From a candidate division WOR-3 bacterium (GTDB taxonomy: Bacteria; Hydrothermota; Tepidihabitantia; Tepidihabitantales; Tepidihabitantaceae): a stretch of 64,000 bases of DNA. A model generated the notes under the pieces. That model was not told the DNA's origin. It saw only the letters and a list, made by a program, of their open reading frames with translations, and did no database searches. Of the stretch, positions 884 through 30,009 are shown piece after piece. The first letter of the stretch is position 1. Each line of letters starts with the position of its first letter. The DNA lies in NCBI GenBank assembly GCA_965649295.1, contig CBFGKH010000007.1, forward strand, positions 75,464 through 139,463, in the 5' to 3' direction. Both the position numbers and the translations under genes were made by a program.

Positions 884-1197
884 AGTAGCTTGCCTCTGCC
901 GGATTGGCGTTCCACGCGCATTCCTGGGCGCAGCAACTCCACGCAAACCATGACGTTGGGCCGACCATCAACGACCATTAGACAGGAGGCGCACTTGCCA
1001 ACTGCGCAAAAAAAGCCTCGGGGTCGTTTGCGGCGCTCGGCGTGGCGAAAGACATCGATACCATTGGCCACTAGCGCGGCAGCGATAGTGTCACCGGACA
1101 GTCCCTGCAACTTCTTTCCTTCAAAGTAGAACTCAATAGTCTGCGAGCGTTCAAACTTCAGGATTGGATGGATACTAATTCGACGCGTTTCCGCCAT
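880..1197 (-). CDS. (2Fe-2S)-binding protein, HcnA / sarcosine-oxidase alpha N-terminal-like
   Basis: 105 aa with the Cys cluster FFCAVGKCASCLMVVDGRPNVMVC, typical of the small 2Fe-2S subunit that pairs with HcnB-type flavoproteins. Translationally coupled to the downstream oxidoreductase. Confidence 0.6.
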   Translation of the reverse strand: MAETRRISIHPILKFERSQTIEFYFEGKKLQGLSGDTIAAALVANGIDVFRHAERRKRPRGFFCAVGKCASCLMVVDGRPNVMVCVELLRPGMRVERQSGRGKLL

Positions 1198-1203
1198 ATC
1201 TTC

Positions 1204-1983: not shown

Positions 1984-2140
1984 CGGCAGTCAGCTTAGCC
2001 CGGTGTCTTGGGCTGTCAAGCAGATAACTCCTTCTTGGGCCCGAGATCCGCTAATGCCTGTGCGCCGGTTTCTTCTTTCGACCGAATAGCACTCTCCGGC
2101 GGGTTCACGGGCGTTGCGACGACCGAGGTGGAATGGCAAG

Positions 2141-3511: not shown

Positions 3512-3519
3512 GTGTGGTA

Positions 3520-5087: not shown

Positions 5088-5090
5088 GGT

Positions 5091-5795: not shown

Positions 5796-6934
5796 TAGTA
5801 AGCGGGTGTTGCCCAGGTAACCAGCCTTTCGAACGCCGTGGCCAGAAATGGCACGCGGTGCCCTAGTAGAGTGTCGATCGTCCCGATCAGAACGACCAGT
5901 CCGATGAACACAATCAGCCAGAGTCGAATGAAGTCTTCACCCTTGAGCGAACCTAGCATCACCGGTTCGGGGCGAAGATAGCATGACGCAGCATAGATTT
6001 CTTCACCGATCATCGTGTAATCACAGGCCGCCACGAAGAACGGTAGCTGGGTGGTCTCAGTGGTTCCAGCGAGCTGGATTGCGCCAACCGAATGGCCGGT
6101 TTCGGCCATTATCAGCGATTCGGCATAGAAGTAGCCGAGCCAAAAGATGGCTCCTGGCTTCTCGCGGAGAATGATTCCATCAACACCAGCAGCGTAACCG
6201 AACTGGTCAGAAGTAAGGAAGCTAATGTTATCCGGATTGTAGAAGTCGGGACGACCGGTTTCGGTGTATGCTTCTTTGACAGTCTCTTGGGCAGCTGACA
6301 TCACGATTGGATCAGAATTAGGTACAAGCAGTCGGGTTGAGTATTCTGCAGACTTCCGAGCGATTTTGCGCAGGAGGGGGAGAGCCGCCACGACGACAAT
6401 GTCAGTGATATAGCCAAGGCCGAAAGAGAAGAGTATCGGTCTGCCCATTTCGGTTGCCCGGCCGAGCGCGTCGTCGATTGCATCGAGTCCGGCGATCTTG
6501 CGAACGTACATCTTGACACCACGGCGAGCGCGTTGAATGTAGAGGATGAAGATGGCGCTGATGACCACTGCCGCTACAAGGATGTTCACGCGGGCAGTGT
6601 TGAACCACTGGGCACTGCTTTGGACCGGTCCGAAGACTGCGCTGCGAGCAGTGTCAGTAGCGTAGCAGGCGTCCACAGCGTAGTAGTAGTCCGTGTGGTT
6701 CGCTACGTTGTTATCAGCGAACTCGGTGTTTGTTGCCGGTTCAGTTCCGACGACGACGAATCCCGTGTCAGGAGACTGCGAGCGGAGGACACGGTAGCCG
6801 AGTACTGGATTAGAATCTTCTGGTGGGGTCCAGCTGATGATTATCGAATTGCCCTGATCATTGGGGTTGTCGGTAGCGACAACATTGGCAGGCGGTAGTG
6901 CCGCTAGAATGGCGAGTAGCGAGAGAAGTGTCAT
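5795..6934 (-). CDS. membrane protein with N-terminal extracytoplasmic fibronectin-III-like domain
   Basis: 379 aa. Signal peptide, then an FN3-like segment (IISWTPPEDSNPVLGYRVLRSQSPDTGF...TDYYYAV), one transmembrane helix (VNILVAAVVISAIFILYI), a large domain, and a C-terminal transmembrane helix. First gene of the operon. Confidence 0.5.
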   Translation of the reverse strand: MTLLSLLAILAALPPANVVATDNPNDQGNSIIISWTPPEDSNPVLGYRVLRSQSPDTGFVVVGTEPATNTEFADNNVANHTDYYYAVDACYATDTARSAVFGPVQSSAQWFNTARVNILVAAVVISAIFILYIQRARRGVKMYVRKIAGLDAIDDALGRATEMGRPILFSFGLGYITDIVVVAALPLLRKIARKSAEYSTRLLVPNSDPIVMSAAQETVKEAYTETGRPDFYNPDNISFLTSDQFGYAAGVDGIILREKPGAIFWLGYFYAESLIMAETGHSVGAIQLAGTTETTQLPFFVAACDYTMIGEEIYAASCYLRPEPVMLGSLKGEDFIRLWLIVFIGLVVLIGTIDTLLGHRVPFLATAFERLVTWATPAY

Positions 6935-7033
6935 CGATATGCGAGGCGGTAAAGAGTAGCAGCGAATGGCGAACTGTCAAACACCGCTCGCGGCTGGGTT
7001 GTTGACAGGTCGGCGGCATGGCCATATGTTACC

Positions 7034-7849
7034 TTGATGGCCGAACATGATTTTGCAACTCAATCGCGCAAACCGTTGGTGGTTGGATCAGCAGGTGCAG
7101 ATCGCCTTGAAACAGAGCAACTGGTGTTTCGTCCTGACCCGGTGAGGACAGTAGTCATTGCCCGGTTACGACTTTTGCTGCTTGGCCTTGCCGTGCTGAT
7201 GCTCGTCATTACCATGGTTATACTCGTCGGTTACCGACCCCGCTACTCGGTTCGAACGCTTGCGGTAGGCGGTGATTCGGCGCCAGCTCCTGCATTCGTT
7301 TCTGCACCACTTCAATCTTTCAAGTCTGAGCAAGTTGTCCCGATCAATGACCGGTTTGCCGCTGTCCGGGTTGCCTTATGTAGCATTGACTCGACGGCGG
7401 CATTGGTTGAAGACCGCTGGCTTCGTACTAGAACCATGTTGCCTGCCAGTGAGCAGGACAGCGTTGGCGTGCATTCAGTTCTACCCGTGGTCCGTCGCGC
7501 GGCGATTCTGATCGACAGCACCGTCGTTGACGCTGTTCGACTGCGGCAGAATCTTGCGTTGATACGTACTGCGGTCGATCGGGCAGATGGCAACGACGCA
7601 TACAATCTCAGTCTAGTGTATGCCGCAGCTGGCCGCTACGTTGAAGCGGTAATCGGCCGTGACGCCGAACGCCGGTTTCACGTGGCAGCCATCGAGCAAG
7701 CGTTCCATTCGCTGGCCGCAGGTGATGTCGGCGATTACGATGTCAAGCTCGACGTTGCCAATAGTTACCGCTATCGAGCCGACAATCGTCAACGAATGAT
7801 TCAGCGATTGGCCCAGCAGCTCTCGGAAGCGGCCGGAAGGTTGCAGTGA
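7034..7849 (+). CDS. hypothetical membrane-anchored protein
   Basis: 271 aa with one transmembrane helix (LLLLGLAVLMLVITMVILV). No recognisable motif. Overlaps the next gene by 4 nt. Confidence 0.4.
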   Translation: MMAEHDFATQSRKPLVVGSAGADRLETEQLVFRPDPVRTVVIARLRLLLLGLAVLMLVITMVILVGYRPRYSVRTLAVGGDSAPAPAFVSAPLQSFKSEQVVPINDRFAAVRVALCSIDSTAALVEDRWLRTRTMLPASEQDSVGVHSVLPVVRRAAILIDSTVVDAVRLRQNLALIRTAVDRADGNDAYNLSLVYAAAGRYVEAVIGRDAERRFHVAAIEQAFHSLAAGDVGDYDVKLDVANSYRYRADNRQRMIQRLAQQLSEAAGRLQ

Positions 7850-8565
7850 GGGTCGGGCATCTGTTAGTTGGTGGCTTGGGGGTGCTGCTGCTTGTGATTG
7901 GCTGCGATTCAAGTGCCATGCGTCCAGGGGCTGTGCGGGGGAGCGTAATTTTGGGCTGCTGCGAATCGACTGATGTTCGGGGTAGTGTAGTTGAACTGCG
8001 GCGGACGGCGGATATTGTTGACCCGCCAGCCTACAGCGTACATGTGGGTTCTTCAGACCGTTTCTGGCGGGCGGACTTCATGATTATTGGAGTCGAGCCT
8101 GATTCCTACCACGTTCTGGTCTGGAAGGACGATGATGGGGATGAGACTATCAGTGATGGTGATCACGTTGGGGTACACCTTGGAGTCTATGCCCGTAATC
8201 AGCTTGGTTCAAAGTTGCTGGTCACACGGGCAGAAACAGTTGATGTCGGTGGGATTGAATTGAGGCGGCTGTGGCAATTGGCCGTCAGAGCTTGGGGAGA
8301 GAGGCAAGATACGGGCCGAGGGGTCCGATTTGGGTATCAATTCAATCATGACTGCGATCTGCAACTGCTGACAATCGGTTTTCCGAGCGGGGAGACACTG
8401 CCGGACTTCGGCTCGGTCGGTCCCCGGCTTGCTGATTCGATCTATGTGACAGCGACCTGGCGAGCTGGTGGCCAGGTGATGCCACGTGGTTGGTACGGAC
8501 TTGTATTTCGAGGCCGGTTCCGTCATCAGAGCTTCGTTCGCGCAGCTGCTGTGTTTGTCGAGTAG
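7846..8565 (+). CDS. hypothetical lipoprotein
   Basis: 239 aa. Signal peptide with lipobox LLVIGC. Acidic D-rich stretch. Confidence 0.4.
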   Translation: MRVGHLLVGGLGVLLLVIGCDSSAMRPGAVRGSVILGCCESTDVRGSVVELRRTADIVDPPAYSVHVGSSDRFWRADFMIIGVEPDSYHVLVWKDDDGDETISDGDHVGVHLGVYARNQLGSKLLVTRAETVDVGGIELRRLWQLAVRAWGERQDTGRGVRFGYQFNHDCDLQLLTIGFPSGETLPDFGSVGPRLADSIYVTATWRAGGQVMPRGWYGLVFRGRFRHQSFVRAAAVFVE

Positions 8566-8613
8566 GCCAAGTCTGCTTGACCGTGTCTTATCCGACTGTA
8601 TTATCGTGATGTC

Positions 8614-9816
8614 GTGAAACTCATCGAACAACTGGCGATTCAGACCGACTCAAAGATACTGCTGGTTGTATTGGATGGCCTTGGTGGTGTTCCACTTAGG
8701 GACAAAACCGAACTCGAGGCAGCCTGGAACCCGAATCTGAATGCGCTTGCGGCGCGGTCTGGCCTTGGCCTGCTAACGCCAATCGAGCCAGGTATCACGC
8801 CGGGCTCCGGACCAGCCCACCTTGCTCTCTTCGGCTACGATCCAATTGAGTATCAGGTCGGTAGGGGTGTGCTTGAAGCTTTGGGGGTTGGTCTCGAACT
8901 TGGTCCCGGAGATATCTGTTGCCGGGCCAATTTTGCTACGGTCGCAGCAAATGGCGTTATCAAAGATCGGCGGGCAGGCAGGATTGCCACAGATGAAAGT
9001 GCCGAGCTCTGTGAGCGGTTGCAGGCTGCTATTCCGCGAATTGGTGATGTTGAAGTGATAGTCCGTCCAGGCCGGGAGCATCGTTTTGTGGTTGTTTTCC
9101 GAGGCGATGGTCTTGCTGATGGCCTCAGTGAGTCTGACCCATTGCACGAAGGTGTGCCTGCTCTGCTAGTCCGACCGCTAGCAGCGGATGCCGAAAAATC
9201 CGCACGTGTCGCTAATGAGTTCATAAGCAGGGCAGCGACAGTATTGAAAGGCGAGGAGCGAGCTAACTTCGTTCTGTTGCGTGGCTTGGCGCGGCTACCC
9301 AAAATGCCAACGATGACAGAGCGGTTTCGGCTCAACCCGGCGTGTTCGGCAGTTTACCCGATGTATCGTGGTCTAGCTCGTCTTGTCGGTATGCGCGTGC
9401 TCGACGCTGGCCAGACCTGGGATTCGACTGTTGTGGCTGTTCGTGAACACAGAGATGAACACGACTTTTTTTTCATGCACTTCAAGGAGTTCGACAAGGC
9501 TGGTGAGGATGGAAACTTTGAGCTCAAACAGGAGCTAATAGAACGTTTTGATGAAGAGATTGTCCCCCAACTGCTTGACCTGAAGTTTGATGTCCTCTGT
9601 ATCACTGGCGATCATTCGACACCGGCAGTACTGCGTGGTCATTCGTGGCATCCGGTCCCGCTGTTGCTTTCTTCACGTTACTGCCGTTCCCAGTTGCGTG
9701 TCGAGGAGTTTGGTGAGCAGGCCTGCGCGCGTGGTATTATTGGGCACATACCCTCAAAGACGCTGATGAACCTCCTGCTGGCCCACGCTGGCAAGCTGGC
9801 CAAGTTTGGAGCTTGA
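8614..9816 (+). CDS. apgM: 2,3-bisphosphoglycerate-independent phosphoglycerate mutase, archaeal type (ApgM)
   Basis: 400 aa, GTG start. N-terminal LLVVLDGLGGVP...PGSGPAHLALFGYDP...GRGVLEALGVGLEL.PGDICCRANFATV matches the ApgM / alkaline-phosphatase-superfamily metalloenzyme signature. Confidence 0.85.
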   Translation: MKLIEQLAIQTDSKILLVVLDGLGGVPLRDKTELEAAWNPNLNALAARSGLGLLTPIEPGITPGSGPAHLALFGYDPIEYQVGRGVLEALGVGLELGPGDICCRANFATVAANGVIKDRRAGRIATDESAELCERLQAAIPRIGDVEVIVRPGREHRFVVVFRGDGLADGLSESDPLHEGVPALLVRPLAADAEKSARVANEFISRAATVLKGEERANFVLLRGLARLPKMPTMTERFRLNPACSAVYPMYRGLARLVGMRVLDAGQTWDSTVVAVREHRDEHDFFFMHFKEFDKAGEDGNFELKQELIERFDEEIVPQLLDLKFDVLCITGDHSTPAVLRGHSWHPVPLLLSSRYCRSQLRVEEFGEQACARGIIGHIPSKTLMNLLLAHAGKLAKFGA

Positions 9817-10377
9817 TTGACTCGTCGTGCCATTGTTTCAGTCTGGGACAAAGCCGGTATTACTGGACTTGCTGCTACGCTAGCCGCTGCTGGCTACGAG
9901 ATACTCTCGACATCGAAAACTGCCCAGGTGCTGCGTGAAGCGGGAATTCACGTTGTCGAGGTCTCTGAGTACACTGGCTCGCCAGAGATACTTGGTGGCA
10001 GGGTTAAGACACTACACCCACGTATCTGCGGTGGGATTCTAACAACGCGCAAGGACGAAACCGTGCCGCCGATAGATGTTGTCGTCTGCAATCTATATCC
10101 CTTCCGCGAAGCCTTTTCACGCAACGCTGGCTACGATGAGCTGATTGAGCTTATTGACATTGGCGGTGTCACCCTGCTGCGTGCGGCAGCCAAGAATCAT
10201 GAGTTTGTGACAGTGGTCCCTGGGCCAGAATACTATGCTGAGGTCGAGGCCGAAATCCGCAAGAACGGTGTCGTCGGATTAGAGTTGAGACGCAGGCTTG
10301 CGGCTGCGGCTTTCAGGATCACGAGTGACTACGATGCAGCCATAGCCGACTGGCTTGCATGTCTGCTCGCGAAGTAG
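9817..10377 (+). CDS. stand-alone IMP cyclohydrolase (PurH N-terminal MGS-like domain only)
   Basis: 186 aa. AIVSVWDKAGI..., GRVKTLHPRICGGIL, and ELIDIGGVTLLRAAAKNH (PurH cyclohydrolase signature DIGGP..RAAAKNH). It ends where the AICAR-transformylase domain would begin. TTG start directly after the apgM TGA. Confidence 0.7.
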   Translation: MTRRAIVSVWDKAGITGLAATLAAAGYEILSTSKTAQVLREAGIHVVEVSEYTGSPEILGGRVKTLHPRICGGILTTRKDETVPPIDVVVCNLYPFREAFSRNAGYDELIELIDIGGVTLLRAAAKNHEFVTVVPGPEYYAEVEAEIRKNGVVGLELRRRLAAAAFRITSDYDAAIADWLACLLAK

Positions 10378-10554
10378 CCTGACTAGAAAACCGCGACAGG
10401 GCGGTTCCGAGAGCAATTCTAAGGGTGAACCCTGAGTTTAGCGATGAAAGACACGCAATGCCCAGCGCCAGCTTAGAATTGCAGAATCTAACAACTGTCA
10501 ATCCTGAAACTCTGGTTCTCGACATCCCCGAATTACCTTCGTGCCATAACCCGC

Positions 10555-10582
10555 TTGACAGCGGACTATTGCATTCTAAGAT
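10555..10582 (+). promoter_or_regulatory. candidate sigma70 promoter for the giant adhesin gene
   Basis: TTGACA (10555-10560), 16-nt spacer, TAAGAT (10577-10582). Lies in a lower-GC 414-nt intergenic region. Confidence 0.35.
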
Positions 10583-10791
10583 ACCGGCAGTTCCGCTACG
10601 ACCAGTTGTGGAGTGCGCCACTGATTGGGCGACTGGTTGTGGTTCGGATTACATTGAGCTAACCGACCGCATATACCGCGCTAATGGTCAGGTCGTAGCA
10701 TTCTGGGCTGAGTATGGCTCGGCCGGCAAGTGTCGGTCAAAGACACGCCAGACTCGCAACCGTAAGCGAAAGACCGAAGCAGGAGGCACTG

Positions 10792-13700
10792 ATGCGTGTA
10801 ATCACAGCAATGCTTGCAGTGGCACTATTCTTGGTGTCGCTCGCGGGCGCACAAAACCAGGCGTTCTTGTTCAAATACCCTCGTTTCGTACAGGGTCAGG
10901 CAGGGACTGGAACTCCGGGGACCGGCGTTCCTTTTGCAGTATTGGGCGGTGCAAGAGCCGCTACAGCAGGCACTTATGCCTACAAACCGCGGTTGATTCT
11001 GACTACTGGTGCTGCAGCCCAGCAGATTAATTGGGTGGACAGCACATCACCAACACCTTTCATTTGGGCGCTTGATAACATAGCATGGGCGAACTGTCCG
11101 ACTTTCTATGTCCCGTCGGCCACTGGCGAGACAGCCAAAGTTTGGGCAGCGGTGAAGTGTGCCACTACCACCGTTGGCGAACGTGATACGTTAAGGTTTA
11201 GAATCCGGATTGGCACCAGCAACATCGATAGTCCGAATCAGAACGATACTGTGAAAGTACTGGATATGACGTCATCGGGTAACGGTGGTTGGCTGACAGG
11301 GCATATTTACGCTCCCGGTCCTGGGGCGCCACGTCAGAACTGTGTTGTCCTGGCGTTCGACGACGACATGTGCGTTGGTTCCTGTTTTACGGAGAACAAC
11401 AAAATCATCGAAGGTTACGACTCAACCGATGCAGGCTATTTTTACATGGCGGTCAGGGCGGGTACTATTGACTCACTCCAGGTGTATGCCCGGACAGAGT
11501 TCGTCCCTTCGCCGTTCTATACGCAGATACCGGCGCCTTGGACCGTTGTTCCCGGAGGCACGACTTCAGTAGATCTCACTTTGGGCCCTACGATTACCGA
11601 TGTGGCACGAAACATAGCTTGGCCCTACAGTAATGAGAACGTTAACGTCTGGGCGACAATTACTCCGCCGACTGGGGGAACGATTGACATTGCTCAGTTG
11701 CAGTACTCGACTGACGGAACCAACTGGACATCCAGCGTCGCGGACTCAACAGCATCCGGCAATCCCAGCGTTTACTATTTCCATTTTCAGGTTCCAACTG
11801 CTGACTCGGTGCTCTACCGTATCTATGCCCACAGCATCAATCCAGTGAGCGAGTCGTATTCATCGATAGTCAAGGTGATGATTCCGCTTGAACGGACGAT
11901 TTACCAGATTCAAGGACAAGCTTCCTCCTCGCCACTTGTCGGCAAGTATGTCCACACAGCCGGTATCGTGACTGGAATCTGCGGCAAAGATCGGGTCTAT
12001 ATCGGCACGGCCAGCGGCGGTCCCTGGAATGGACTGCTTTTCTACCGTGGCGCTGATACGATTACTTTGACCCTTACCCTTGGCGACAGTATTGATATTT
12101 CCGGGACAATTGCCGAGTTTCAGCAGCAGACCCAGATTGGTTCATCGGTACGAACCGTACGGAACGGCACCAATCGGCCGTATGACACGACTCGCGTGAG
12201 TTTGGCGCAGGCGAAACTGGAAGACTACGAAGGCGTACTGGTTGAGGTTGATACTGTGCGAATGTTGCAGTCCGGCGTCTTTGCCGGCAACGGCACCTAC
12301 CACTGTACAACTTTCGAAGGTCTAGATACGATGGTTGTTTACACCTACCAGCGTGCGCCAATTGTCGGTCAACCGATTCCCCAAGGTTACCATACGCTGG
12401 TCGCCAACGTGGCAGACTATACCGGTGTTGGGCGAGAACTGGTGCCGAGTAACATCGGCGCTTTCACCTTCATCGCACCGGATGTGCAGCTCGCCAGCAT
12501 ACTAGCACCGGCCGAGACAGTGGTTGTTGGCGAGCCCTGCGTGCCGGAGGTGAACATCACTAACCTCAGCACAATCAACACTGCGGCCAACTTCACTACG
12601 CGGTTCACTATTGCGCCGGCGGGCGGTGGTGTTCCAGTTTATAACGTTCAGAGTGGCTTTGTTTCAGTCGCCCCAGGCGTGACGCTACCCGTTTTGTTCA
12701 CGAACTGGAACGCTTACGACGGTGACTTTGCGATAAAGGCCTATGTTGAGTACGGCGCGGACCCGAATCGAAGTAACGACACGCTCGAAAGGCTATTGTT
12801 CGTTCGGACACGCGATGTCGGTGTCACGCAAATCAATTATCCTGCCGACACGGCATTCCTAAATGTTTCAGTCACTCCGCAGGTGCGTCTTGTGAACGCT
12901 GGCAATATCGTTGCAACGTTGAGCCTCCAGGTGACGATAACTGGTCCGGGCGGGATTGAGTATGACCGTACTGTTAATGGCATTGTGCTTGCGCCGGAAC
13001 AGGTGCTAGACTACTCGCTGGCCGATGCTTGGACGCCTGCCAACGTTGGCGACTACGTTGCGTCAGTGAGCGTTACGACCGCCTACGATAACAATCTTGC
13101 CAACAATCAGGTGACGGAGAATATTCTCGTTCTCACTGGTCCCGCTTCGCCAGTTCTCGTGACACCAGCGAATCATGCCCAGATCAATGATCCAACTCCA
13201 TTCTTCAGTTGGCAGACCTCGACTGGCGCGAACTGGTATCAGTTGCAGGTTTCGACCGATCCGGCATTTGTAGAACCATGCCTAATTGATGTCCAGCAGA
13301 CCAGTACTACCTACGTACCAGTCGCTGGTTTAGCAGATGGCCAGTACTACTGGCGCGTGCGGGCGTCAGCTAACAACGGTTTAGATTGGGGAGCTTACCA
13401 AGCTGAGCCATTTGACTTCGAACTGGACGCCACTCCACCGGCCCCGCCGCAACTTGTGACCCCTGGTCCGAACGCTGTTGACGTCGCGGTGAATACCGTC
13501 TTTGACTGGGAGGCACCTGAGTTCAAGAGAATCGGCGCCCAGCCTAACAGTGGAAAGTTCAAGTATGCAGGAACCGATGCAGTGGAGGCCTACCTCCTGC
13601 AGGTTGCCCGTGACGCTGGATTCAACCAGCTAGTCTATGACGTTGAGGTCCTCGGTGTCGTGACGGAATGGGCTCAGCCCGGGCCGACCTATCTGGACTA

Positions 13701-15057
13701 TGGAACAAGATACTGGTGGCGAGTGCGTGGCGAGGACAACTTTGGGAACGTCGGCGACTGGGGAACAGGGACTTTTACGACTGTGACAAACGTTGTTCCG
13801 CCAGGCGGCTGGACCGCTCGTCCTGACACAATGATTGGCGCCCCGGTTCGTGACGGCGGTGGCATCACCTACAACGCCGACAAAGGCTTGATGTACGCCA
13901 TCAAGGGCGGCAAGACCAATGAGTTCTGGCAGTACAACCCGGTAGAGACGACCTGGACCAAGCTCACTGACGTCACCGCTGGCACCAAGCCGGTCAACAA
14001 AGGCGCAGCCATCACCACCGGCGGCGGGTTCGTCTATGTGCTGAAGGGCAACAACACCTACGACTTCTACAAGTACGACATCGAGGCTGGGACCTGGGCT
14101 GCCTGCAAGCCCCTGCCCAAGGCGCTGGACCAGACTGCGACCCGGGGCAAGGCGGCCAAAGGCGGCGGCAGCCTGGCCTATGTCTATACTCGCGATTCGA
14201 GCTTCGTCTATACGCTGAAGGGCTCGGGCACGAACGAGTTCTACCGCTACGACGTGGCCCGCGACACCTTCTTCTCACTGGCGCCCGCGCCATACAACAC
14301 CAAGGCGAAGTACGACAAGGGTAGCTGGATTGCCTACGACGGCAGCCGGTTCATCTACCTGATGCAGAACAAGTACAACGCCTTGTTCAAGTATGATGTC
14401 GTGAATGAGGCTTGGGTGACGACGCCGACGCTCGACCCGATGCCACTGGTTGGCCGGTCGGGCAAGTCGAAGAAGGTCGGCGACGGCTCGTGCGCGGCCT
14501 TCAACACGAACGACGGTTACCTGTTCGCGATGAAGGGCAATAACACGCAGGAGGCGTGGAAGTACCTGCCTGGTACAAGCGACACCTGGGTCGAGCTCGA
14601 GACAATCCCGCAGGCTTATGAGGGCGGCAAGAAGAAGAAGGTGAAGGCTGGTGCCGGTGTAGCTTACTATCCGGCGACTCGCGTCTTCTTCGTCCAGAAG
14701 GGTAACAAGTCGAACCAGTTCTGGAAGTATGTGCCTGGCTCAGTGGTCTATGCCTCTCGTCCGCAGCGTGAGGGCATCGCGGTCAGTGGGCTAACCAGCG
14801 TTGGCCACAGTCTGGCGATCGCACCGAATCCGCTGGCTGGCGGTCAGGCAGTAGTGCGCTACACCTTGCCGCGGGCTGGAATGGTGAGCCTGAGCGTCTG
14901 CGATGTCACTGGCCGCGTGGTGATGGAGCGGACGTTTGCGGCTGGCCGGACCGGCGTACAGAGCCTCGACCTGCGCGGGCTCTCGGCTGGAGTGTACCTT
15001 GTCAAGCTAGACGCTAGTGGGTTCACTTTGAGCCAGAAGCTCGTAGTCGAGCGCTAG
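10792..15057 (+). CDS. giant secreted T9SS cargo protein: OB-like N-domain, CARDB-like/FN3-like repeats, 6-bladed Kelch-like propeller, T9SS C-terminal sorting domain
   Basis: I start it at MRVITAMLAVALFLVSLAGAQN (AGGAGG RBS 5 nt upstream) rather than at the ORF-track 10714. C-terminal blades with a recurring xxKGxxTxEFWxY motif. Terminal VVRYTLPRAGMVSLSVCDVTGRVV...VYLVKLDASGFTLSQKLVVER is a Por_Secre_tail-type T9SS CTD. Confidence 0.8.
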   Translation: MRVITAMLAVALFLVSLAGAQNQAFLFKYPRFVQGQAGTGTPGTGVPFAVLGGARAATAGTYAYKPRLILTTGAAAQQINWVDSTSPTPFIWALDNIAWANCPTFYVPSATGETAKVWAAVKCATTTVGERDTLRFRIRIGTSNIDSPNQNDTVKVLDMTSSGNGGWLTGHIYAPGPGAPRQNCVVLAFDDDMCVGSCFTENNKIIEGYDSTDAGYFYMAVRAGTIDSLQVYARTEFVPSPFYTQIPAPWTVVPGGTTSVDLTLGPTITDVARNIAWPYSNENVNVWATITPPTGGTIDIAQLQYSTDGTNWTSSVADSTASGNPSVYYFHFQVPTADSVLYRIYAHSINPVSESYSSIVKVMIPLERTIYQIQGQASSSPLVGKYVHTAGIVTGICGKDRVYIGTASGGPWNGLLFYRGADTITLTLTLGDSIDISGTIAEFQQQTQIGSSVRTVRNGTNRPYDTTRVSLAQAKLEDYEGVLVEVDTVRMLQSGVFAGNGTYHCTTFEGLDTMVVYTYQRAPIVGQPIPQGYHTLVANVADYTGVGRELVPSNIGAFTFIAPDVQLASILAPAETVVVGEPCVPEVNITNLSTINTAANFTTRFTIAPAGGGVPVYNVQSGFVSVAPGVTLPVLFTNWNAYDGDFAIKAYVEYGADPNRSNDTLERLLFVRTRDVGVTQINYPADTAFLNVSVTPQVRLVNAGNIVATLSLQVTITGPGGIEYDRTVNGIVLAPEQVLDYSLADAWTPANVGDYVASVSVTTAYDNNLANNQVTENILVLTGPASPVLVTPANHAQINDPTPFFSWQTSTGANWYQLQVSTDPAFVEPCLIDVQQTSTTYVPVAGLADGQYYWRVRASANNGLDWGAYQAEPFDFELDATPPAPPQLVTPGPNAVDVAVNTVFDWEAPEFKRIGAQPNSGKFKYAGTDAVEAYLLQVARDAGFNQLVYDVEVLGVVTEWAQPGPTYLDYGTRYWWRVRGEDNFGNVGDWGTGTFTTVTNVVPPGGWTARPDTMIGAPVRDGGGITYNADKGLMYAIKGGKTNEFWQYNPVETTWTKLTDVTAGTKPVNKGAAITTGGGFVYVLKGNNTYDFYKYDIEAGTWAACKPLPKALDQTATRGKAAKGGGSLAYVYTRDSSFVYTLKGSGTNEFYRYDVARDTFFSLAPAPYNTKAKYDKGSWIAYDGSRFIYLMQNKYNALFKYDVVNEAWVTTPTLDPMPLVGRSGKSKKVGDGSCAAFNTNDGYLFAMKGNNTQEAWKYLPGTSDTWVELETIPQAYEGGKKKKVKAGAGVAYYPATRVFFVQKGNKSNQFWKYVPGSVVYASRPQREGIAVSGLTSVGHSLAIAPNPLAGGQAVVRYTLPRAGMVSLSVCDVTGRVVMERTFAAGRTGVQSLDLRGLSAGVYLVKLDASGFTLSQKLVVER

Positions 15058-15141
15058 ACTAGCGCAGCCCTCGGGCTGCCCAACCTTGCGGTGGCGGGCA
15101 GATGCCCGCCACCGCAACTGGCAGATGGGTAATGGCTGTTG

Positions 15142-15169
15142 TTGTTTTCTATTGACAGCCGGGGGTAGG
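15142..15169 (+). promoter_or_regulatory. near-consensus sigma70 promoter upstream of the pilin gene
   Basis: TTGACA (15142-15147), 16 nt, TAAAAT (15164-15169). About 118-nt leader to the ATG at 15293. Confidence 0.5.
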
Positions 15170-15292
15170 GGGGTAAAATTATATTGCAGACGAGACTGGG
15201 TGCGCCTTGAGCCGCGGCAAGAGCAGGCCGTGTCCCGAGGTAGCTCGGTTTCCCTGCTAAACTAAATCCACACAAGAGAGGAGGTGGAGTCC

Positions 15293-15892
15293 ATGAAGAA
15301 TAAGGGCTTCACACTGATCGAACTGCTGGTGGTCATTCTGATCATCGGTATCCTGCTCGCCCTCATCATCCCGAACTTCGTGTTGTTCCAGGAGCGCGCT
15401 CGTCGCAGCTCAGTGAAGAACAACATGCACATCTTCCAGACGGCGCTCGAGGCATATGCCGTTGACCACAACGGTGCCTATCCGTCGGAAGACATTTCGT
15501 GGGCAGAGGATGAGGAATATGGTATCTGCTGCTGGTTCCCGGGCGGCGACCCGATCGGCGTCGGCGACGGCCCGATTCCGGGCAAGTTCCCGATCAACCC
15601 CTACAGCGGCGTCCGTTACGCTGACGGCGATGACATGTTCTGCGACGGCGCGGCCTTGGAACAGGGAACCAACGGCTATACCACCACGAACGATGACTGC
15701 CCGTACGAAGGTCTTGAAGCCGACGGTGGGTTCCAGGGTACCATCTCTGTCCTCGGCTGGGGCTGGGATGACACCTATGACGGCTCGATGCAGGAGTATG
15801 GCATCGTTGGTTGGGGCCGCGATATCACGGACCCGATGAACGACTACAACTCCGTCGAAGACATCCGTTCCTACTTCGTTCTCCACAACTAG
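15293..15892 (+). CDS. type IV pilin / pseudopilin (prepilin-type N-terminal methylation domain)
   Basis: MKNKG|FTLIELLVVILIIGILLALIIP is the class-III signal (G/F cleavage site, E at +5). AGGAGG RBS. The ORF track starts 3 codons earlier (15284). The C-terminal domain is D/G/W/Y-rich. Confidence 0.8.
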   Translation: MKNKGFTLIELLVVILIIGILLALIIPNFVLFQERARRSSVKNNMHIFQTALEAYAVDHNGAYPSEDISWAEDEEYGICCWFPGGDPIGVGDGPIPGKFPINPYSGVRYADGDDMFCDGAALEQGTNGYTTTNDDCPYEGLEADGGFQGTISVLGWGWDDTYDGSMQEYGIVGWGRDITDPMNDYNSVEDIRSYFVLHN

Positions 15893-15913
15893 TCGACCAC
15901 CATCAACTAGTCA

Positions 15914-15944
15914 GGCGGGGCGCATTGCGCCCCGCCGCTTTTGT
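15914..15944 (+). terminator. rho-independent terminator after the pilin gene
   Basis: GC hairpin ggcggggcg / cgccccgcc followed by gcttttgt. Confidence 0.6.
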
Positions 15945-16227
15945 CGCTGCTTGGCGCTGGTTGTAGCTTCCGATTCTGACGTGCTATCTTGATGAAGAAC
16001 AGCGGCAGTCTTTGTTCTTGAACCTCGGTACCGCGTGCCGCCGATAAAAAAGAGTAGGTAGGCGTCGTCCGGTCCGACTGCTGCGATGCTTGTAATTGGC
16101 AGTCTTTACGCGTTGCTGATGCTAATCTTCTGATCCTCGGCACCAGCCGAAAAACTGACCATCAACGTCTGCCTGGCGCTGACACTGCCCTTAGGCTGTT
16201 CCTTGTCCGATCCGATGGCTGTAGGTG

Positions 16228-17046
16228 CTATTCGAACGTCGCGAGGGCCGCAGGTAGTTGGTTGAGGGTGTGGATCGTTGCGTCGGCGCCGGCTTCGGCA
16301 GCTTCCATGCCGCCGCCCTGCGCGACAGGCTTGGTGCCAGCAGCGCCATCACGCCGGAGCCAGACGGTTTTCATCCCAACAGCACTGGCACCGGCGATGT
16401 CGTGCTTAGGGCTGTCGCCGACGAAGACCGCGTCGGCAGCGTCCACGCCGAGTCGCTCAAGAGCAATTGCAAAGATGCGCGGGTCAGGCTTGCGCACCCC
16501 GACTTCACGCGAGATGACGCGCACCGGAAAGTAGCTTTGGAGCCCAGAACGGGAGATTTTCTCACACTGGAGGTCGCAGGGGCCGTTAGTGACCGCGGCG
16601 AGCCGGTAGCGGTGTCTAAGCTCGTCGAGAACCGGCAGTACGTCGTCGTAGGGCACGTAACGGTTGCGACGCTCGATTGGGTAAAGGCAGGCGAGTTGCT
16701 CAGCAAGCATCGGGTCAGCAACGCCGCAAGCAGCCAGTGCTTCGAACCAGACTTCGAGGCGGAATCGTGGGGCCCAGGCGCGGAGCTCAGTCATTTCGGC
16801 ATCGTCGCCGGCGAATGTCGAGCTGAGCGCTTCCCACGAGGAAACATCAAAGTTGCCGTCGGCGGGGAAAAGGGGATGGGCACGGAACTTCTGGCGAGCG
16901 ATGCGACGCACTGCCTGACGCAGGTCTTCGGGCGGCGTGTTGTGGATGGCGCGGGCATACTGGGCAACGGCAAGGATCGCAGCGTCGGCTGCGGCCTCGT
17001 CCGGCAGCAGTGTGTCGTCAATGTCGAAGAGGACGGCTTGCAGCAT
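16228..17046 (-). CDS. HAD-superfamily hydrolase (subfamily IA-like)
   Basis: 272 aa. N-terminal motif I in VLFDIDDTLL. Motif III/IV in VFVGDSPKHDIAGASAVGM. Confidence 0.8.
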   Translation of the reverse strand: MLQAVLFDIDDTLLPDEAAADAAILAVAQYARAIHNTPPEDLRQAVRRIARQKFRAHPLFPADGNFDVSSWEALSSTFAGDDAEMTELRAWAPRFRLEVWFEALAACGVADPMLAEQLACLYPIERRNRYVPYDDVLPVLDELRHRYRLAAVTNGPCDLQCEKISRSGLQSYFPVRVISREVGVRKPDPRIFAIALERLGVDAADAVFVGDSPKHDIAGASAVGMKTVWLRRDGAAGTKPVAQGGGMEAAEAGADATIHTLNQLPAALATFE

Positions 17047-17085
17047 CAGTGATGAGCGGGCGATTGGAGCGTGGCCACTGCTCCT

Positions 17086-17517
17086 TCAGCCGAGCGGCTG
17101 GTGGTTGTCGTGGGGCTCGTGCCGCAGCAGGCCGAGCGATTCGAGTAGGTCGTGTACCTGCTGTTGGATGATGTCCCGAACCCGGCGATACTCCTCGATG
17201 CCCTTGCCGAACGGGTCAGGTATCTGCCACTGGACAACTTTGGCACCGGGCAAGAAAGGGCAGTCAACTTCGCAGCCCATGGTGACGAGGTAATTGAACC
17301 GCAGGTCCGGCAGGTCAGAGAAGCCTTTCGGCCGGGCAGCGGAGATGTCAATGCCGACTTCGTTCATCGCGGTTACGGTGTCGGTTTGGACCTGCGCGGC
17401 CGGAGCCGAGCCGGCTGAGGCGCACTCGACATCGCGGCCGAGTACCCGGCAGAACGCCTCGGCCATCTGGGAGCGGCACGAGTTGCCGACACAGGCAAAG
17501 AGAATGCGAGCTGCCAT
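17086..17517 (-). CDS. ArsC / low-molecular-weight phosphotyrosine phosphatase family protein (paralog 1)
   Basis: 143 aa. P-loop CVGNSCRS. MGCEVDCP cysteine pair. IPDPF near the C-terminus. Confidence 0.65.
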   Translation of the reverse strand: MAARILFACVGNSCRSQMAEAFCRVLGRDVECASAGSAPAAQVQTDTVTAMNEVGIDISAARPKGFSDLPDLRFNYLVTMGCEVDCPFLPGAKVVQWQIPDPFGKGIEEYRRVRDIIQQQVHDLLESLGLLRHEPHDNHQPLG

Positions 17518-17571
17518 TAACGGGAGTGTAGTCAGGTGGCGGCTGGTGTCAACGACCGCGGCAGTTGCGGC

Positions 17572-18006
17572 CTAGGCCCAGGCGATGTCGGGGTCGGCAA
17601 GCCAGCGCCGGATGTGGGTTTCGATGTCGTCGCGGATGCGGCGAAACGCGGCCAGCCGTTCGAGCTCGGAGCCGCCAGCAAGGGCGGGATTCGGGACCGG
17701 CCAGACCAGCCGCGTCGTGCCACCCGGCCAAGTGGTTGGCTCCGGGTCAGCCGATTCGTTGCAGAGGACTATGGCCAGGTCGATTGGCTCGCCGCCGAGC
17801 GCAGCCCGGAACGGCTGCGGTTCGCGGCGGTCGAGGTGAATGCCAATCTCGGCGAGGACTTGGCGGGCAAGCGGGTGGACCTCTCTGCCAGGAGTGAATC
17901 CGGCACTGCTCACATTGTAGGTATCGCCGCAGTGGTAGCGGGCAATAGCCTCGGCAATGGGCGAGCGGCAGGTGTTGTCGGCACAAAGGAACAGCACGTT
18001 AGGCAT
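17572..18006 (-). CDS. ArsC / LMW-PTP family protein (paralog 2)
   Basis: 144 aa. P-loop CADNTCRS. Only one downstream Cys (VLCNESADPEP). Confidence 0.6.
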   Translation of the reverse strand: MPNVLFLCADNTCRSPIAEAIARYHCGDTYNVSSAGFTPGREVHPLARQVLAEIGIHLDRREPQPFRAALGGEPIDLAIVLCNESADPEPTTWPGGTTRLVWPVPNPALAGGSELERLAAFRRIRDDIETHIRRWLADPDIAWA

Positions 18007-18066
18007 GCCTCAGTCTGACCGTGATGTACTAAGGCGATAGAAGCCGGTGGTCAGGCCCGTGTCAGC

Positions 18067-18510
18067 TCAGTTGGTACTGACGGTGGTGAGCCAATCGCGC
18101 AGCTTGGTTTCGATTGCATCGCGGGCAGCACGGAACGCGGCGAGCTTTTCTTCCTCGCTGCCGGTGACAGTGGCCGGGTCATCAATCGGCCAGTAGATGC
18201 GCTCAGTGAGGTCTGGCCAGGCAACCGGACAGGTCTCTGCTGCCTTTGCGCAGACAAAGATTGCCCAGCGTACCCGGACTTGCCCGAGGAACTCGCGGAC
18301 GCTCTTGGGCCGCAGGCCTTGGGTGCTGATGCCCTTCTCGGCAAGCACGCGTAATGCTAGCGGGTGGACCGCACTGGCTGGCTCAAGTCCGGCGCTGCGG
18401 GCATCGAAGCGATCGCCGGCCAGATGGCGCAAGAGCGCCTCGGCTAGCTGGCTGCGGCAGCTATTGGCTGTGCAAAGAAACAGAACGACGGGTTCGTTGT
18501 CAGACATCAA
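18067..18510 (-). CDS. arsC: thioredoxin-coupled arsenate reductase ArsC (LMW-PTP fold)
   Basis: 147 aa. CTANSCRS P-loop plus VCAKAAETCP, equivalent to the C82/C89 pair of Bacillus ArsC. WPIDDPATVTGSEEEKLAAFRAARDAIETKL parallels B. subtilis ArsC. Confidence 0.7.
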   Translation of the reverse strand: MMSDNEPVVLFLCTANSCRSQLAEALLRHLAGDRFDARSAGLEPASAVHPLALRVLAEKGISTQGLRPKSVREFLGQVRVRWAIFVCAKAAETCPVAWPDLTERIYWPIDDPATVTGSEEEKLAAFRAARDAIETKLRDWLTTVSTN

Positions 18511-18744
18511 ACAGCAGTTTGGGTTTGGATTGTCAGGCCAGGATTAGTTTCCGGTAAGGAACAAGTCAGGGATAACGGGGCGTGTGCCGTGTCTGGGTCT
18601 TGTCGTGGCGGTTGAATTCGTTAGAATGATAAGCAGTGCGGGGATGGAGTCCCCCTGAAACTGCCCGCTGGGCTGATGACTCCTGCAAGGCCGTGATGCA
18701 CTGACACACGGTTGTTCGGTAAGCGCTAATTTACGGAGGACTTC

Positions 18745-19980
18745 TTGCAGGAGACATTCTCCTTGGCCGCAATCTGGCTTGCCCTCGCTGTCGGGGCAAC
18801 AATCATCGCCAATCATCTACGGGTCTCGATTGCCCTGGTCGAAATCTGTGTCGGCGTAGTCGCTGGTGCTGTTGCCACTCGATTCTTTGGTCCGGATGCG
18901 CTTGGTGCAAATGCCGGCTGGTTACGGTTTCTCGCCGCGGCTGGTTCGGTACTGCTGACCTTTCTGGCTGGGGCTGAGCTCGAACCAGCGGTGCTGCGGC
19001 GCAAACTCGGTGAGGTGAGCGCAATTGGTCTGGTCGGGTTCTTTGCGCCGTTTCTGGGCTGCACAGCGGTCGCCCGATTCCTGCTTCACTGGGATATGCG
19101 GGCGAGTCTGCTTGCCGGGGTGGCGCTTTCGACCACCTCGATGGCCGTGGTCTATGCCGTGATGCTGGAGACCGGATTCAACAAAACTGAGTTCGGCAAG
19201 GGCATACTTGGCGCCTGCTTTGTCAACGACCTCGGTACTGTGCTGGCACTTGGGTTCATCTTCGCGCCATTCACCTACAAGACCGGTGTCTTTGCCTTGG
19301 TCACGGCGGTGGTGTTGATTGCGCTACCGTTTCTGACGCGTGGGCTCGCTAGCCGTTACGCGTATCGGACAGCTGCGATTCGCACCAAATGGGTCATGCT
19401 TGTTATCTTTGCGCTCGGCGCGCTCGCGCTCTGGTCAGAAAGCGAGGCGGTGCTGCCCGCCTACCTCATTGGAATGGTGCTGGCAGGCACGGCAGCGATG
19501 GACCACGACTTCGTGCGGCGCCTGCGCACCCTGACGGTTGGGTTCCTGACGCCATTCTACTTCATCCGCGCTGGTTCGCTTGTATCGGTGCCGGCGCTCA
19601 TCAGCGGGCCGCTGGCCTTTCTCGCCCTGCTTGGCGGCAAGGTTGTGACCAAGGTACTTGGCCTGTTTCCGGTCATTGCTCGGTTCCGCAAGGAGCGGAA
19701 TGAGCGCTGGTACTATACGCTGATGATGTCCACCGGCTTGACTTTCGGGACGATTGCCGCGCTCTACGGCTACTCGCATGGCATCGTCAGCGGCGCACAG
19801 TATTCCTTTCTTGTTGCCACCGTGATTGCCAGCGCGGTCGTGCCAACAGTGATTGCCACGTTAGCATTCCTGCCGCGTCACCTGCTGCCGGATGTTGACA
19901 CGCTTGGGCTGCCCGTAGAGGCGCGCGGTGACGTACGGCTGATTCCGGACGCCGAGGAAGAAGAACCAGCGGAGAGCTAG
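18745..19980 (+). CDS. cation:proton antiporter (CPA / Na+-H+ exchanger family)
   Basis: 411 aa, about 11-12 transmembrane helices, typical Na_H_Exchanger-like layout (GAELEP..., FLAGAEL). Divergent from the arsC trio. Confidence 0.7.
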   Translation: MQETFSLAAIWLALAVGATIIANHLRVSIALVEICVGVVAGAVATRFFGPDALGANAGWLRFLAAAGSVLLTFLAGAELEPAVLRRKLGEVSAIGLVGFFAPFLGCTAVARFLLHWDMRASLLAGVALSTTSMAVVYAVMLETGFNKTEFGKGILGACFVNDLGTVLALGFIFAPFTYKTGVFALVTAVVLIALPFLTRGLASRYAYRTAAIRTKWVMLVIFALGALALWSESEAVLPAYLIGMVLAGTAAMDHDFVRRLRTLTVGFLTPFYFIRAGSLVSVPALISGPLAFLALLGGKVVTKVLGLFPVIARFRKERNERWYYTLMMSTGLTFGTIAALYGYSHGIVSGAQYSFLVATVIASAVVPTVIATLAFLPRHLLPDVDTLGLPVEARGDVRLIPDAEEEEPAES

Positions 19981-19995
19981 CATGGCCAACCAGCG

Positions 19996-20220
19996 GTGGG
20001 AGCAGAGACGGTGCTTGGACCGCTGATTATAGTCACTGGCGCGTTCAGTCTGCTCGGCGGCAGTACGGCGTTCGCGATTATCTATCTGGAGTACCAACGG
20101 CACCAGCTTGGTCAGCGACGGGTGTTGGCTGAGTCGTTGCAGGCTGGCATTCTCGCTTTCGTCGTCCTTATGGTAATGGGACTTGCCGCAGGCCTGCTCG
20201 TTGGTCGCATCAGCAAATGA
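19996..20220 (+). CDS. small 2-TM membrane protein
   Basis: 74 aa, two hydrophobic helices. Its stop overlaps the next start. Confidence 0.4.
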   Translation: MGAETVLGPLIIVTGAFSLLGGSTAFAIIYLEYQRHQLGQRRVLAESLQAGILAFVVLMVMGLAAGLLVGRISK

Positions 20221-22163: not shown

Positions 22164-22556
22164 GTGCAGCGACAGCAGCTTGTGACTGCGGCTTTGCTTT
22201 CGGCCGCAGTTGTTCTGCTGATAGTGATTCCGCCGTCATTCTTCGAGCGGCTTCCTTCGGTCTGTCTCCACCAATGGTTGTTTCGACTGGTCGGATTACG
22301 GGGGGCAGCTTGCTGCCCGGGCTGCGGTAGCGTGCGGGCGTTATCGCACCTGTTTCACGGTCAGATTGCCCAGGCAGTCAGGTACAACGTCAACTGCCTG
22401 TTGATTGCGCCGCTCGTCATCGGTCTCATTGCCCTCAATTTTGGTCGCTGGCTGCACGGCCGGATAACAAGTCAGAGCCGGATTACGGCACTCCGTGCTG
22501 GCGACTTGCCGGGTCGCATCGTCGAGCCGGATTGTGAGTCTTCGCGTATCATGTAA
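22164..22556 (+). CDS. DUF2752-family membrane protein
   Basis: 130 aa. CPGCGSVRA motif (DUF2752 consensus CPxCGxTRA) between two transmembrane helices. Confidence 0.6.
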   Translation: MQRQQLVTAALLSAAVVLLIVIPPSFFERLPSVCLHQWLFRLVGLRGAACCPGCGSVRALSHLFHGQIAQAVRYNVNCLLIAPLVIGLIALNFGRWLHGRITSQSRITALRAGDLPGRIVEPDCESSRIM

Positions 22557-23079
22557 CTACCTTTCCGTCCGAACCCAGCCGGACCGTTCTCCATTCGTAG
22601 TTTCCGTGCTTGAGGACACGGCGAATCGAATCCTGAATCCGCTCGCGCCGCTTATCGCGCGCTGGGCCGTCAAGAAGCACGAGCCTTCGGACCGACTCGC
22701 GTAGCGTCATACCGTCGAATACCACGAAGTCAACTGGGTCGAACATCGGCTTTAGGTCCTGTGGATAATAGCCGAGTCTGCTGATTGTGGGAACGCGCTT
22801 CTTGAGCATCGCCGGCAGTCGCCGTCGGCCCATCTCCTGCGCGCGTCGGCGCAGTTCTGCCTTTTGTTCCTCAAACCGCTCTTCGGCAAGGTCCATGCGC
22901 CGCTTTCTGTCTCGGAGTTCATCAAGCCACGTGCGTTTGGGCTTTGCTCGATACGATAGTTTCATCTCGCTGAGACGGTGGATTCCGCCACAACGCGGGC
23001 AGACGACTAGTATGCGCTGGAAGTCTTGGAATGCAGCCAGAATCGGAGTTCTCATAGCTTCCCTCGGTAAGTGGCCCAA
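22549..23079 (-). CDS. PD-(D/E)xK Holliday-junction-resolvase-like endonuclease-family protein; paralog with degenerate catalytic motif
   Basis: 176 aa. N-terminal CPRCGG zinc knuckle, coiled-coil middle. C-terminal LKPMFDPVDFVVFDGM...LVLLDGPARDKRRERIQDSIRRVLKHGNYEW aligns to its upstream paralog, but the VKTG lysine is replaced (DGPA). Confidence 0.5.
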   Translation of the reverse strand: MGHLPREAMRTPILAAFQDFQRILVVCPRCGGIHRLSEMKLSYRAKPKRTWLDELRDRKRRMDLAEERFEEQKAELRRRAQEMGRRRLPAMLKKRVPTISRLGYYPQDLKPMFDPVDFVVFDGMTLRESVRRLVLLDGPARDKRRERIQDSIRRVLKHGNYEWRTVRLGSDGKVVT

Positions 23080-23549
23080 TTGACCTTCCCGCGTTCAACC
23101 GCGTCTCTTATCTGCTTCTGAGTTGGGGTGAGTTGTGCACCGCCAGTCTTCACATCGAAGAAGAGGATTGAGTCAACTCTGCCGTTAGCAGCGGCAAGAC
23201 CGTTGAACGCAACGTAGTCAATCGGCTCAAAGAGCGGCCTGAGGTCGCGGCAGTCCATGTCGAACCCGCTCATCGCGGGGGCTACCTTTTCAAGTATCTT
23301 GCCGATGTTGATTGAGACCGTGGCCGTTTGAGAACGTTCCTTGAGCTTGCGCCGTGCTTCGCGCAGGTTCTTTCTCCTCTCTTCCAGGCTGGCTTCCCAT
23401 TCGTCCAGCACCGCTTTGGCTTCTGCGGGGACCGGGTCGCCAATGTAGAACATCACGGCGTCCGCGAGGGAGAACATCTCCCCGCTGTCCGGGCACTCTG
23501 CCAGTATTCGGCGGTCGGCCTGCAGCTCGGCGATAGTATTCTGTTTCAT
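23052..23549 (-). CDS. PD-(D/E)xK Holliday-junction-resolvase-like endonuclease (Endonuc_Holl / COG4741-like)
   Basis: 165 aa. C-terminal LRPLFEPIDYVAFNGL...VDSILFFDVKTGGAQLTPTQKQIRDAVERGKVNW (D...D-V-K core). The family assignment is from memory of the motif. Confidence 0.55.
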   Translation of the reverse strand: MKQNTIAELQADRRILAECPDSGEMFSLADAVMFYIGDPVPAEAKAVLDEWEASLEERRKNLREARRKLKERSQTATVSINIGKILEKVAPAMSGFDMDCRDLRPLFEPIDYVAFNGLAAANGRVDSILFFDVKTGGAQLTPTQKQIRDAVERGKVNWATYRGKL

Positions 23550-29472: not shown

Positions 29473-29475
29473 GGA

Positions 29476-29997: not shown

Positions 29998-30009
29998 TTG
30001 GCCTCCGGA

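Follow-up and report, generated by a model that had tools for sequence, protein, structure and literature searches.

A probable major type IV pilin gene of a WOR-3-type bacterium, carried on a conserved cassette with a structured 5' leader

A 64,000-nt stretch of DNA from a candidate division WOR-3 bacterium (hereafter the window, meaning the whole stretch that was analysed) carries a gene that probably encodes the major pilin of a type IVa-like pilus, making it functionally pilA, and that is set in a compact cassette with the marks of high expression. The protein is a type IV-class prepilin, its relatives usually head a pilus gene cluster, and the transcript would begin with a long hairpin whose pairing has been maintained while its sequence has diverged. 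The elements of the cassette, in order along the window, are as follows.

15130..15151, plus strand: UP-element-like T-rich tract directly 5' of the −35 hexamer (putative function)
15152..15179, plus strand: sigma-70-type promoter, TTGACA-16-TAAAAT, matching 11 of 12 consensus positions
15186..15257, plus strand: leader hairpin, leader nt 1-72, beginning at the transcript 5' end predicted from the −10 hexamer
15258..15292, plus strand: A-rich tract and extended Shine-Dalgarno sequence, with AGGAGGTG at 15279..15286, 6 nt 5' of the ATG
15293..15892, plus strand: prepilin CDS, 199 aa plus stop
15293..15307, plus strand: leader peptide MKNKG, part of the prepilin CDS
15914..15945, plus strand: intrinsic terminator, a 10-bp all-GC stem with a 3-nt loop (15914..15936), then GCTTTTGTC

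Results

The protein is a type IV-class prepilin with an acidic head

An automated list of open reading frames had put the pilin start at GTG 15284; we place it at ATG 15293, because every homologue begins M-x-x-K/R-G-F. From this codon the product opens MKNKG|FTLIELLVVILIIGILLALIIPNF, the prepilin N-terminus being MKNKG|FTLIELLVV, with the mature part running from Phe6, Glu10 at position +5 and FVLHN at the C-terminal end. The protein has a class III signal peptide (a short basic leader ending in Gly, Phe at +1 and Glu at +5) and a pilin fold, in which a helix at residues 8-58 is followed by an acidic antiparallel beta-sheet head at residues ~61-199. Its assignment as a type IV-class pilin, already made in the initial annotation, was borne out by the Pfam N_methyl model (PF07963; 33.5 bits, cut-off 21.2) and by TIGR02532 (32.4 bits, cut-off 16.3). 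Several narrower models matched the N-terminal part below their cut-offs: the type II secretion pseudopilin model GspG (TIGR01710) reached 55.7 bits (cut-off 88.85) over residues 4-67 only, corresponding to model positions 1-63 of 134, the Myxococcus-type PilA model (NF041775) reached 53.3 bits (cut-off 400) over residues 2-56 only, and the sub-threshold ComGC match was confined to the first 55-65 residues. The Pfam T2SSG model (PF08334) did not match the window pilin.

More than 100 full-length homologues, 50-65% identical, were found in the protein database; those that are named are called 'prepilin-type N-terminal cleavage/methylation domain-containing protein', and all entries with a stated organism come from candidate division WOR-3. 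Among 114 homologues with overall identities of just 53-64%, residues 5-60 hardly vary, which is the pattern expected of what would be the polymerising helix of a major pilin.

The 139-aa head of the window protein contains 27 Asp+Glu versus 4 Lys+Arg, together with 5 Trp, 23 Gly and 4 Cys, in line with its earlier description as acidic, rich in Trp and Gly and bearing several Cys. Across the family, heads of ~145 residues have a median of 32 Asp+Glu versus 5 Lys+Arg, with medians of 1 Trp and 16 Gly; acidity is thus a family-wide trait, and richness in Trp and Gly one of the window's lineage only. The acidic head has no Pfam relative and no close PDB relative, and its domain family is small, with 257 of 1.84 billion cluster representatives at E ≤ 1e-3 and 20 at E ≤ 1e-30. 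Of 114 homologues, 106 have Cys136, which lies in a DCPY motif. For a putative disulfide bond in the C-terminal region, the likely partner of Cys136 is the Cys just before FPGGD (29 sequences) or that of EYGIC (48), with 20 sequences having neither, and an analysis of the three Cys positions indicated alternating partners for Cys136, although a simple pairwise comparison of the FPGGD-proximal Cys with DCPY gave no clean covariation. Conservation extends to FVLHN at the C-terminus, which is common to a shorter paralogue in the pilus cluster of relatives.

Three proteins (P0071, P0127 and P0145) carry the pilin head domain without a prepilin N-terminus. Two head-domain proteins have a zinc ribbon and a DUF4190 membrane anchor fused in at ..ILALIIPNFVLFQERARR, and one 493-aa protein consists of N-terminal repeats followed by the pilin head domain. 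Since the head occurs without a prepilin N-terminus, it is a portable domain, and this lineage-specific acidic head domain is a new element.

Promoter, ribosome-binding tract and terminator are conserved around the gene

We compared the window with a set of 66 distinct family genes with flanks, 40 of which had at least 1.3 kb of downstream and 34 at least 900 nt of upstream sequence. Shuffles of 14000..17500 would yield 0.7 such sites; the window promoter is the only one there, and it ranks first among the 15 in 1..20000. Of 63 distinct family loci, 62 carry TTGACA in perfect form, or in one case TTGACG, separated by 16-18 nt from a −10 hexamer. All 62 match 10-12 of the 12 consensus positions, and the distance from the −10 end to the ATG is 102-156 nt in all but two of these 62 loci. 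A+T makes up 68% of the T-rich tract 5' of the window's −35 hexamer and 41% of the window as a whole; in most of 61 family loci the −35 hexamer adjoins a tract of T or A, with a mean of 56% A+T against 43% for the loci. The promoter spacer (15158..15173 in the window) contains a run of 5-7 G just 5' of the −10 hexamer, which in the window reads GGGGGTAGGGGGG; most GC-rich family loci have such a run and AT-rich lineages are without it.

Downstream in the leader, AAAAGA[GA]AGGAGGTG is invariant or nearly so among 40 aligned leaders, the window's version being CACAAGAGAGGAGGTG, and AGGAGGTG occurs only once in the whole 64 kb. The Shine-Dalgarno core is unpaired in the window's minimum free energy (MFE) fold and is flanked by a weak 5-bp helix (ATCCA/TGGAG). 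At the other end of the gene, the terminator, with its 10 G-C pairs (−24.4 kcal/mol), is the top-ranked terminator-like site in 1..20000. A GC-rich hairpin follows the stop codon in 65 of 65 distinct family loci (median start 17 nt after the stop), with at least 4 T in the next 9 nt in 51 of them, and it is kept even where ABC and pilus genes come next.

Near-consensus promoter and strong terminator had both been called from the window sequence, and the phylogenetic footprint is far better evidence for the two than a consensus match alone. By comparison of ~60 diverged loci, promoter, leader, ribosome-binding tract and terminator are conserved as one cassette. The layout of a highly expressed major pilin gene, which the initial annotation had seen in this arrangement, thereby gains support from the conservation of the cassette together with the usual place of the orthologue at the head of a pilus cluster, although the expression level itself is predicted.

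The window gene is displaced from the pilus cluster that its relatives head

Within the 64 kb the gene is a stand-alone transcription unit. No second GFTLIE-type motif was present in the six frames, tblastn with a relative's ABC, minor-pilin, PilM/N, PilO, PilP and PilQ proteins returned only the pilin itself, and Pfam searches of every window ORF of at least 150 aa revealed no PilB/T2SSE, PilC/T2SSF, prepilin peptidase, PilM/N/O or secretin. Its upstream neighbour encodes a 1447-aa Kelch protein with a T9SS sorting domain, and downstream, on the other strand, lie a HAD hydrolase gene and two LMW-phosphatase/ArsC-like genes.

The surroundings are different in most relatives. A pilus cluster lies no more than 900 nt 3' of the orthologue in 30 of the 40 loci with at least 1.3 kb downstream and ~6 kb away in 3 further loci, and it has the following order.

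Relatives' cluster, first part: ABC ATPase, ABC permease, 298-aa TPR-like protein, four prepilin-type genes (minor pilins)
Relatives' cluster, continued: PilM/N fusion, PilO, two small proteins, PilQ-type secretin

The PilM/N fusion matches TIGR01175 (137.8 bits, cut-off 133), and the secretin has AMIN and Secretin domains in precomputed Pfam assignments; PilB, PilC and PilD were not seen in the relatives' available flanks. In L001 (10714..13333) and throughout the 30 cluster-linked loci, the ABC ATPase, ABC-2 permease and 298-aa TPR-like protein genes always stand between the pilin and the minor pilins. The first prepilin gene of the L001 cluster (13394..13930) encodes a 178-aa paralogue that is 31% identical to the window pilin, ends in FVLHN and matches GspG model positions 1-125 of 134; no copy of this paralogue occurs in the window. 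Seven of the 40 loci, the window included, have no pilus cluster in the available flank, and the closest homologue (65% identical) is cluster-linked. The gene had been called an orphan, and this description holds within the 64 kb and fails as a property of the family.

A second habitual neighbour of the family is the rRNA operon. The orthologue lies directly 3' of the 23S-5S rRNA genes, on the same strand, in 22 of the 34 loci with at least 900 nt upstream (for example L001 6133..9291, L005 326..3636 and L007 6603..9784), and in rRNA-linked loci the rRNA-side hairpin and T-tract adjoin the pilin −35 hexamer. This habitual position is a new element. The window pilin is not rRNA-linked, and an arrangement that adjoins neither rRNA nor pilus cluster is, from the distribution over loci, a derived minority state. 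Because orthologues usually head the pilus cluster, we assign the family to the role of major pilin in a type IVa-like pilus, with the window gene as a displaced copy of it.

We considered whether the gene might instead encode GspG, the major pseudopilin of a type II secretion system (T2SS), whose product would form a short periplasmic piston in place of a surface pilus. The GspG model is matched below its cut-off, over N-terminal residues only, the Pfam T2SSG model finds nothing, and the mature window pilin has 194 residues whereas the GspG model has 134 positions. The genes linked to it in relatives are PilM (above cut-off), PilN, PilO and an AMIN-bearing secretin, with no GspC- or GspL-type gene seen among them. 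Major pilin genes usually have a separate, very strong promoter and terminator, as this gene does, whereas gspG normally lies inside the gsp operon. We therefore regard a pseudopilin as unlikely.

That the window copy is a decaying relic, left by a rearrangement or by loss of the pilus machinery, would fit its separation from the rRNA genes and pilus cluster that accompany most orthologues, and also the lack of pilus machinery in the 64 kb. Yet every column invariant in the 114 homologues is retained, as are the 11/12 promoter, the hairpin, the perfect Shine-Dalgarno sequence and the terminator, and other stand-alone copies (L007/L008, L152 and L156) likewise have intact signals, so that decay is very unlikely.

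The window holds several further features. A fluoride riboswitch (RF01734; 53.1 bits, gathering score 34) lies at 18631..18692 on the plus strand, just 5' of a Na+/H+ exchanger family gene (18745..19980). An apparent arsenic or redox resistance gene set occupies 17086..18006 and 28303..32279 and comprises two LMW-phosphatase/ArsC-like genes, an ArsP permease, a thioredoxin, a DsbD-like protein, a SAM methyltransferase and an ArsR-type regulator. Four large proteins with T9SS C-terminal sorting domains are encoded at 10714..15057, 32363..34636, 43944..52217 and 52404..57986, with Kelch repeats in three, a papain-like domain in one and a gingipain-like C25 peptidase in one; given these sorting domains, the organism is a diderm with type IX secretion. 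Two adjacent minus-strand genes at 22549..23549 both match PF10107 (Holliday-junction-resolvase-like endonuclease).

The leader forms a hairpin whose pairing is conserved

The −10 hexamer of the window ends 113 nt before the ATG, and transcription is predicted to start at ~15186, ~7 nt past the −10 hexamer, which gives a leader of ~107 nt; the initial annotation had put it at 118 nt, of which the long leader stands and the length does not. For the window leader (15186..15295) the computed MFE is −43.7 kcal/mol (z = −2.77). Each of 60 non-identical family leaders folds as one long imperfect hairpin of 19-38 bp, the stem of which starts 5-8 nt past the −10 hexamer, i.e. at the predicted 5' end, in 55 of them. 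In most leaders the hairpin ends ~30-40 nt 5' of the ATG, and most folds, the window's included, leave the Shine-Dalgarno core unpaired. Against dinucleotide shuffles the median z-score of the 60 leaders was −4.2, with 85% below −2.

The arm sequences differ widely between sub-lineages. Nevertheless, each leader's own arms pair at a mean of −37.1 kcal/mol versus −19.6 kcal/mol for arms taken from leaders less than 60% identical, and the own arm was better than every dissimilar arm in 47 of 60 leaders. A covariance model built from one subgroup found diverged leaders, including the window's (E = 3.7e-5, partial match). Covariation was counted in an alignment of 25 leaders fitted to the covariance model's own structure (alignment A6), in which 87.3% of cells were paired (71.4 ± 1.0% in shuffles), 28 of 29 pairs had changed on both sides (17.5 ± 2.1 in shuffles) and the covariation score was 0.544 (0.251 in shuffles), each of these three values being reached by 0 of 500 shuffles, while slid controls gave at most 48% paired. 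A MAFFT alignment of 40 leaders analysed with RNAalifold gave no consensus structure because that alignment is not structural, and a close subgroup of 19 leaders showed 83% pairing with covariation that was not significant; the covariation evidence therefore rests on A6 plus the alignment-free tests. Collectively, these comparisons indicate that the hairpin is under selection for structure rather than for sequence.

An inverted repeat at this place might also be a DNA operator for a dimeric repressor just 3' of the promoter, as +1 to +72 is a typical operator position and covariation is also expected of inverted repeats at the DNA level. However, 18% of the hairpin pairs are G-U, which on the other strand would be A-C mismatches, in 50 of 60 leaders it is the sense strand that gives the more stable fold (P = 1.3e-9), and the covariance model scores far higher on the plus strand (131.7 versus 30.8 bits on the minus strand at locus L097). 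The repeat is moreover too variable in length and sequence for one DNA-binding protein. From the strand asymmetry and the G-U pairs it follows that the structure acts in RNA, and we consider an operator highly improbable.

Rfam 15 gave no match at the gathering threshold and none at E ≤ 1 over window 15100..15960, and at locus L097 it gave chance-level matches only, all 5' of the leader. The leader hairpin is thus a well-supported structured 5' UTR that is new and has no Rfam counterpart. L106 has the leader and ribosome-binding tract twice, the second time (638..756, minus strand) in opposite orientation and immediately 5' of the family pilin, which suggests that two pilin genes may be transcribed divergently in that organism.

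The hairpin is most likely an mRNA stabiliser

An attenuator was rejected, as no U-run follows the hairpin. An upstream ORF from (A/G)TGCG, a motif on the 5' arm, was rejected as well, as the motif is present in 31 of 60 leaders only, its frames and stops are inconsistent and only 6 of the ORFs end at the Shine-Dalgarno sequence.

In our analysis, the hairpin is most likely a 5'-terminal stem-loop that would stabilise the mRNA. We favour this role because the hairpin begins directly at the predicted 5' end, leaves the very strong ribosome-binding site behind it exposed, lacks a U-run on its 3' side and has an apical half that varies freely in length and sequence across the family. According to the titles of references 92-95 and 109 in PMC3997798, 5'-terminal stem-loops stabilise the mRNAs of ompA, papA (a pilus subunit) and aprE.

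The leader had also been suggested to be regulatory. A specific regulatory RNA, which a protein or ribonuclease might bind or which might act as a sensor and tune pilin synthesis, is conceivable but doubtful. Such a function would suit the conservation of the hairpin with compensatory changes, the recurrence of (A/G)TGCG on the 5' arm in those 31 of 60 leaders, which hints at more than a passive hairpin, and a subgroup in which the 3' flank (UCAUC..UCC) could pair with GGAGGUGA; the ancestral site directly 3' of 23S-5S rRNA, too, suggests growth coupling. But the freely varying apical half leaves no conserved pocket, the ribosome-binding site is free in most folds and in the window's, the possible anti-Shine-Dalgarno pairing is missing in the window's lineage, the missing U-run speaks against attenuation, and Rfam holds no matching family. 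What survives of the suggestion is the conserved hairpin at the 5' end, and the free ribosome-binding site fits a stabiliser better than a switch.

In its broadest form, the regulatory reading sees in the hairpin a cis-regulatory RNA, new and present throughout the lineage, on which a ribonuclease or other protein would dock and so couple pilin output to growth state. It fits the ancestral place of the cassette, right after the 23S-5S rRNA genes, and we hold it to be possible at a low level of confidence. If true, promoter, hairpin, ribosome-binding site, pilin and terminator would form a portable module working wherever it is placed, as in the window.

Discussion

Taking the gene as a probable major pilin and the hairpin as the likely stabiliser, we propose the following course of events. 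The near-consensus sigma-70 promoter with its upstream T-tract would fire at ~15186, and the first 72 nt of the mRNA would fold at once into the long hairpin. This would leave no free 5' end, and the message may thereby be shielded from 5'-end-dependent decay. The A-rich tract with its unpaired AGGAGGTG Shine-Dalgarno core would then allow efficient translation, and the strong terminator would keep the message monocistronic and cap its 3' end. The prepilin would insert in the inner membrane, be cut after Gly5 by a prepilin peptidase and be polymerised through its near-invariant N-terminal helix by a PilM/N/O/P/Q-type machine presumably encoded elsewhere in the genome, yielding a pilus fibre with a very acidic surface.

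WOR-3 bacteria are uncultured, and a literature search on WOR-3 pili found no publication. A major pilin gene that is known and, to judge by its signals, apparently built for very high expression offers a handle for detecting pili by metatranscriptomics and metaproteomics, and structural studies could take the pilin as a way into an unusually acidic pilus surface. With the conserved leader hairpin, a candidate phylum contributes a well-supported structured 5' UTR that had not been described, and the rRNA-pilin linkage is an unusual genome organisation that is open to tests of co-regulation. Current understanding of type IV pilus function is unchanged by these findings.

Comparison with known systems

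In kind the window gene is nothing unusual: it is a probable major type IV pilin gene whose cassette is strong and monocistronic by its signals. With the type IVa pilins (Thermus thermophilus PilA4, Myxococcus xanthus PilA and Pseudomonas PilA) it shares the short basic leader ending in Gly with Phe at +1 and Glu at +5, the helix of ~50 residues followed by a beta-sheet head, the separate gene with its own terminator (strong expression being predicted for the window gene) and, in its relatives, the link to minor pilins and PilMNOPQ. M. xanthus PilA is similarly large, compared with the 194 mature residues of the window pilin. An ABC transporter trio follows the pilin gene in M. xanthus, where pilGHI come after pilA, and also in the window gene's relatives.

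No named family scores better than GspG (TIGR01710/PF08334) over the N-terminal 63 residues of the window pilin, which also has similar 'YP' and 'P-[WY]-G' motifs, and the cluster paralogue in relatives covers nearly the whole GspG model. In contrast, the window pilin itself falls below the TIGR01710 cut-off, lacks a PF08334 match and is ~60 residues longer, and the accompanying genes in relatives are of the PilM/N/O/Q type.

As for the leader, those of E. coli ompA and papA and B. subtilis aprE, known here from the reference titles in PMC3997798, have a stable hairpin beginning within a few nt of the 5' end, as the WOR-3 leader does with respect to its predicted 5' end. A strong ribosome-binding site stands exposed behind the hairpin in each case, and the mRNA encodes an envelope or fibre protein made in great abundance, an abundance that is predicted for the pilin. 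The WOR-3 hairpin differs from them in being much longer (~72 nt, 19-38 bp) and of unrelated sequence, with a stabilising role that is predicted, and, unlike these leaders, it is conserved over a whole candidate phylum-level group.
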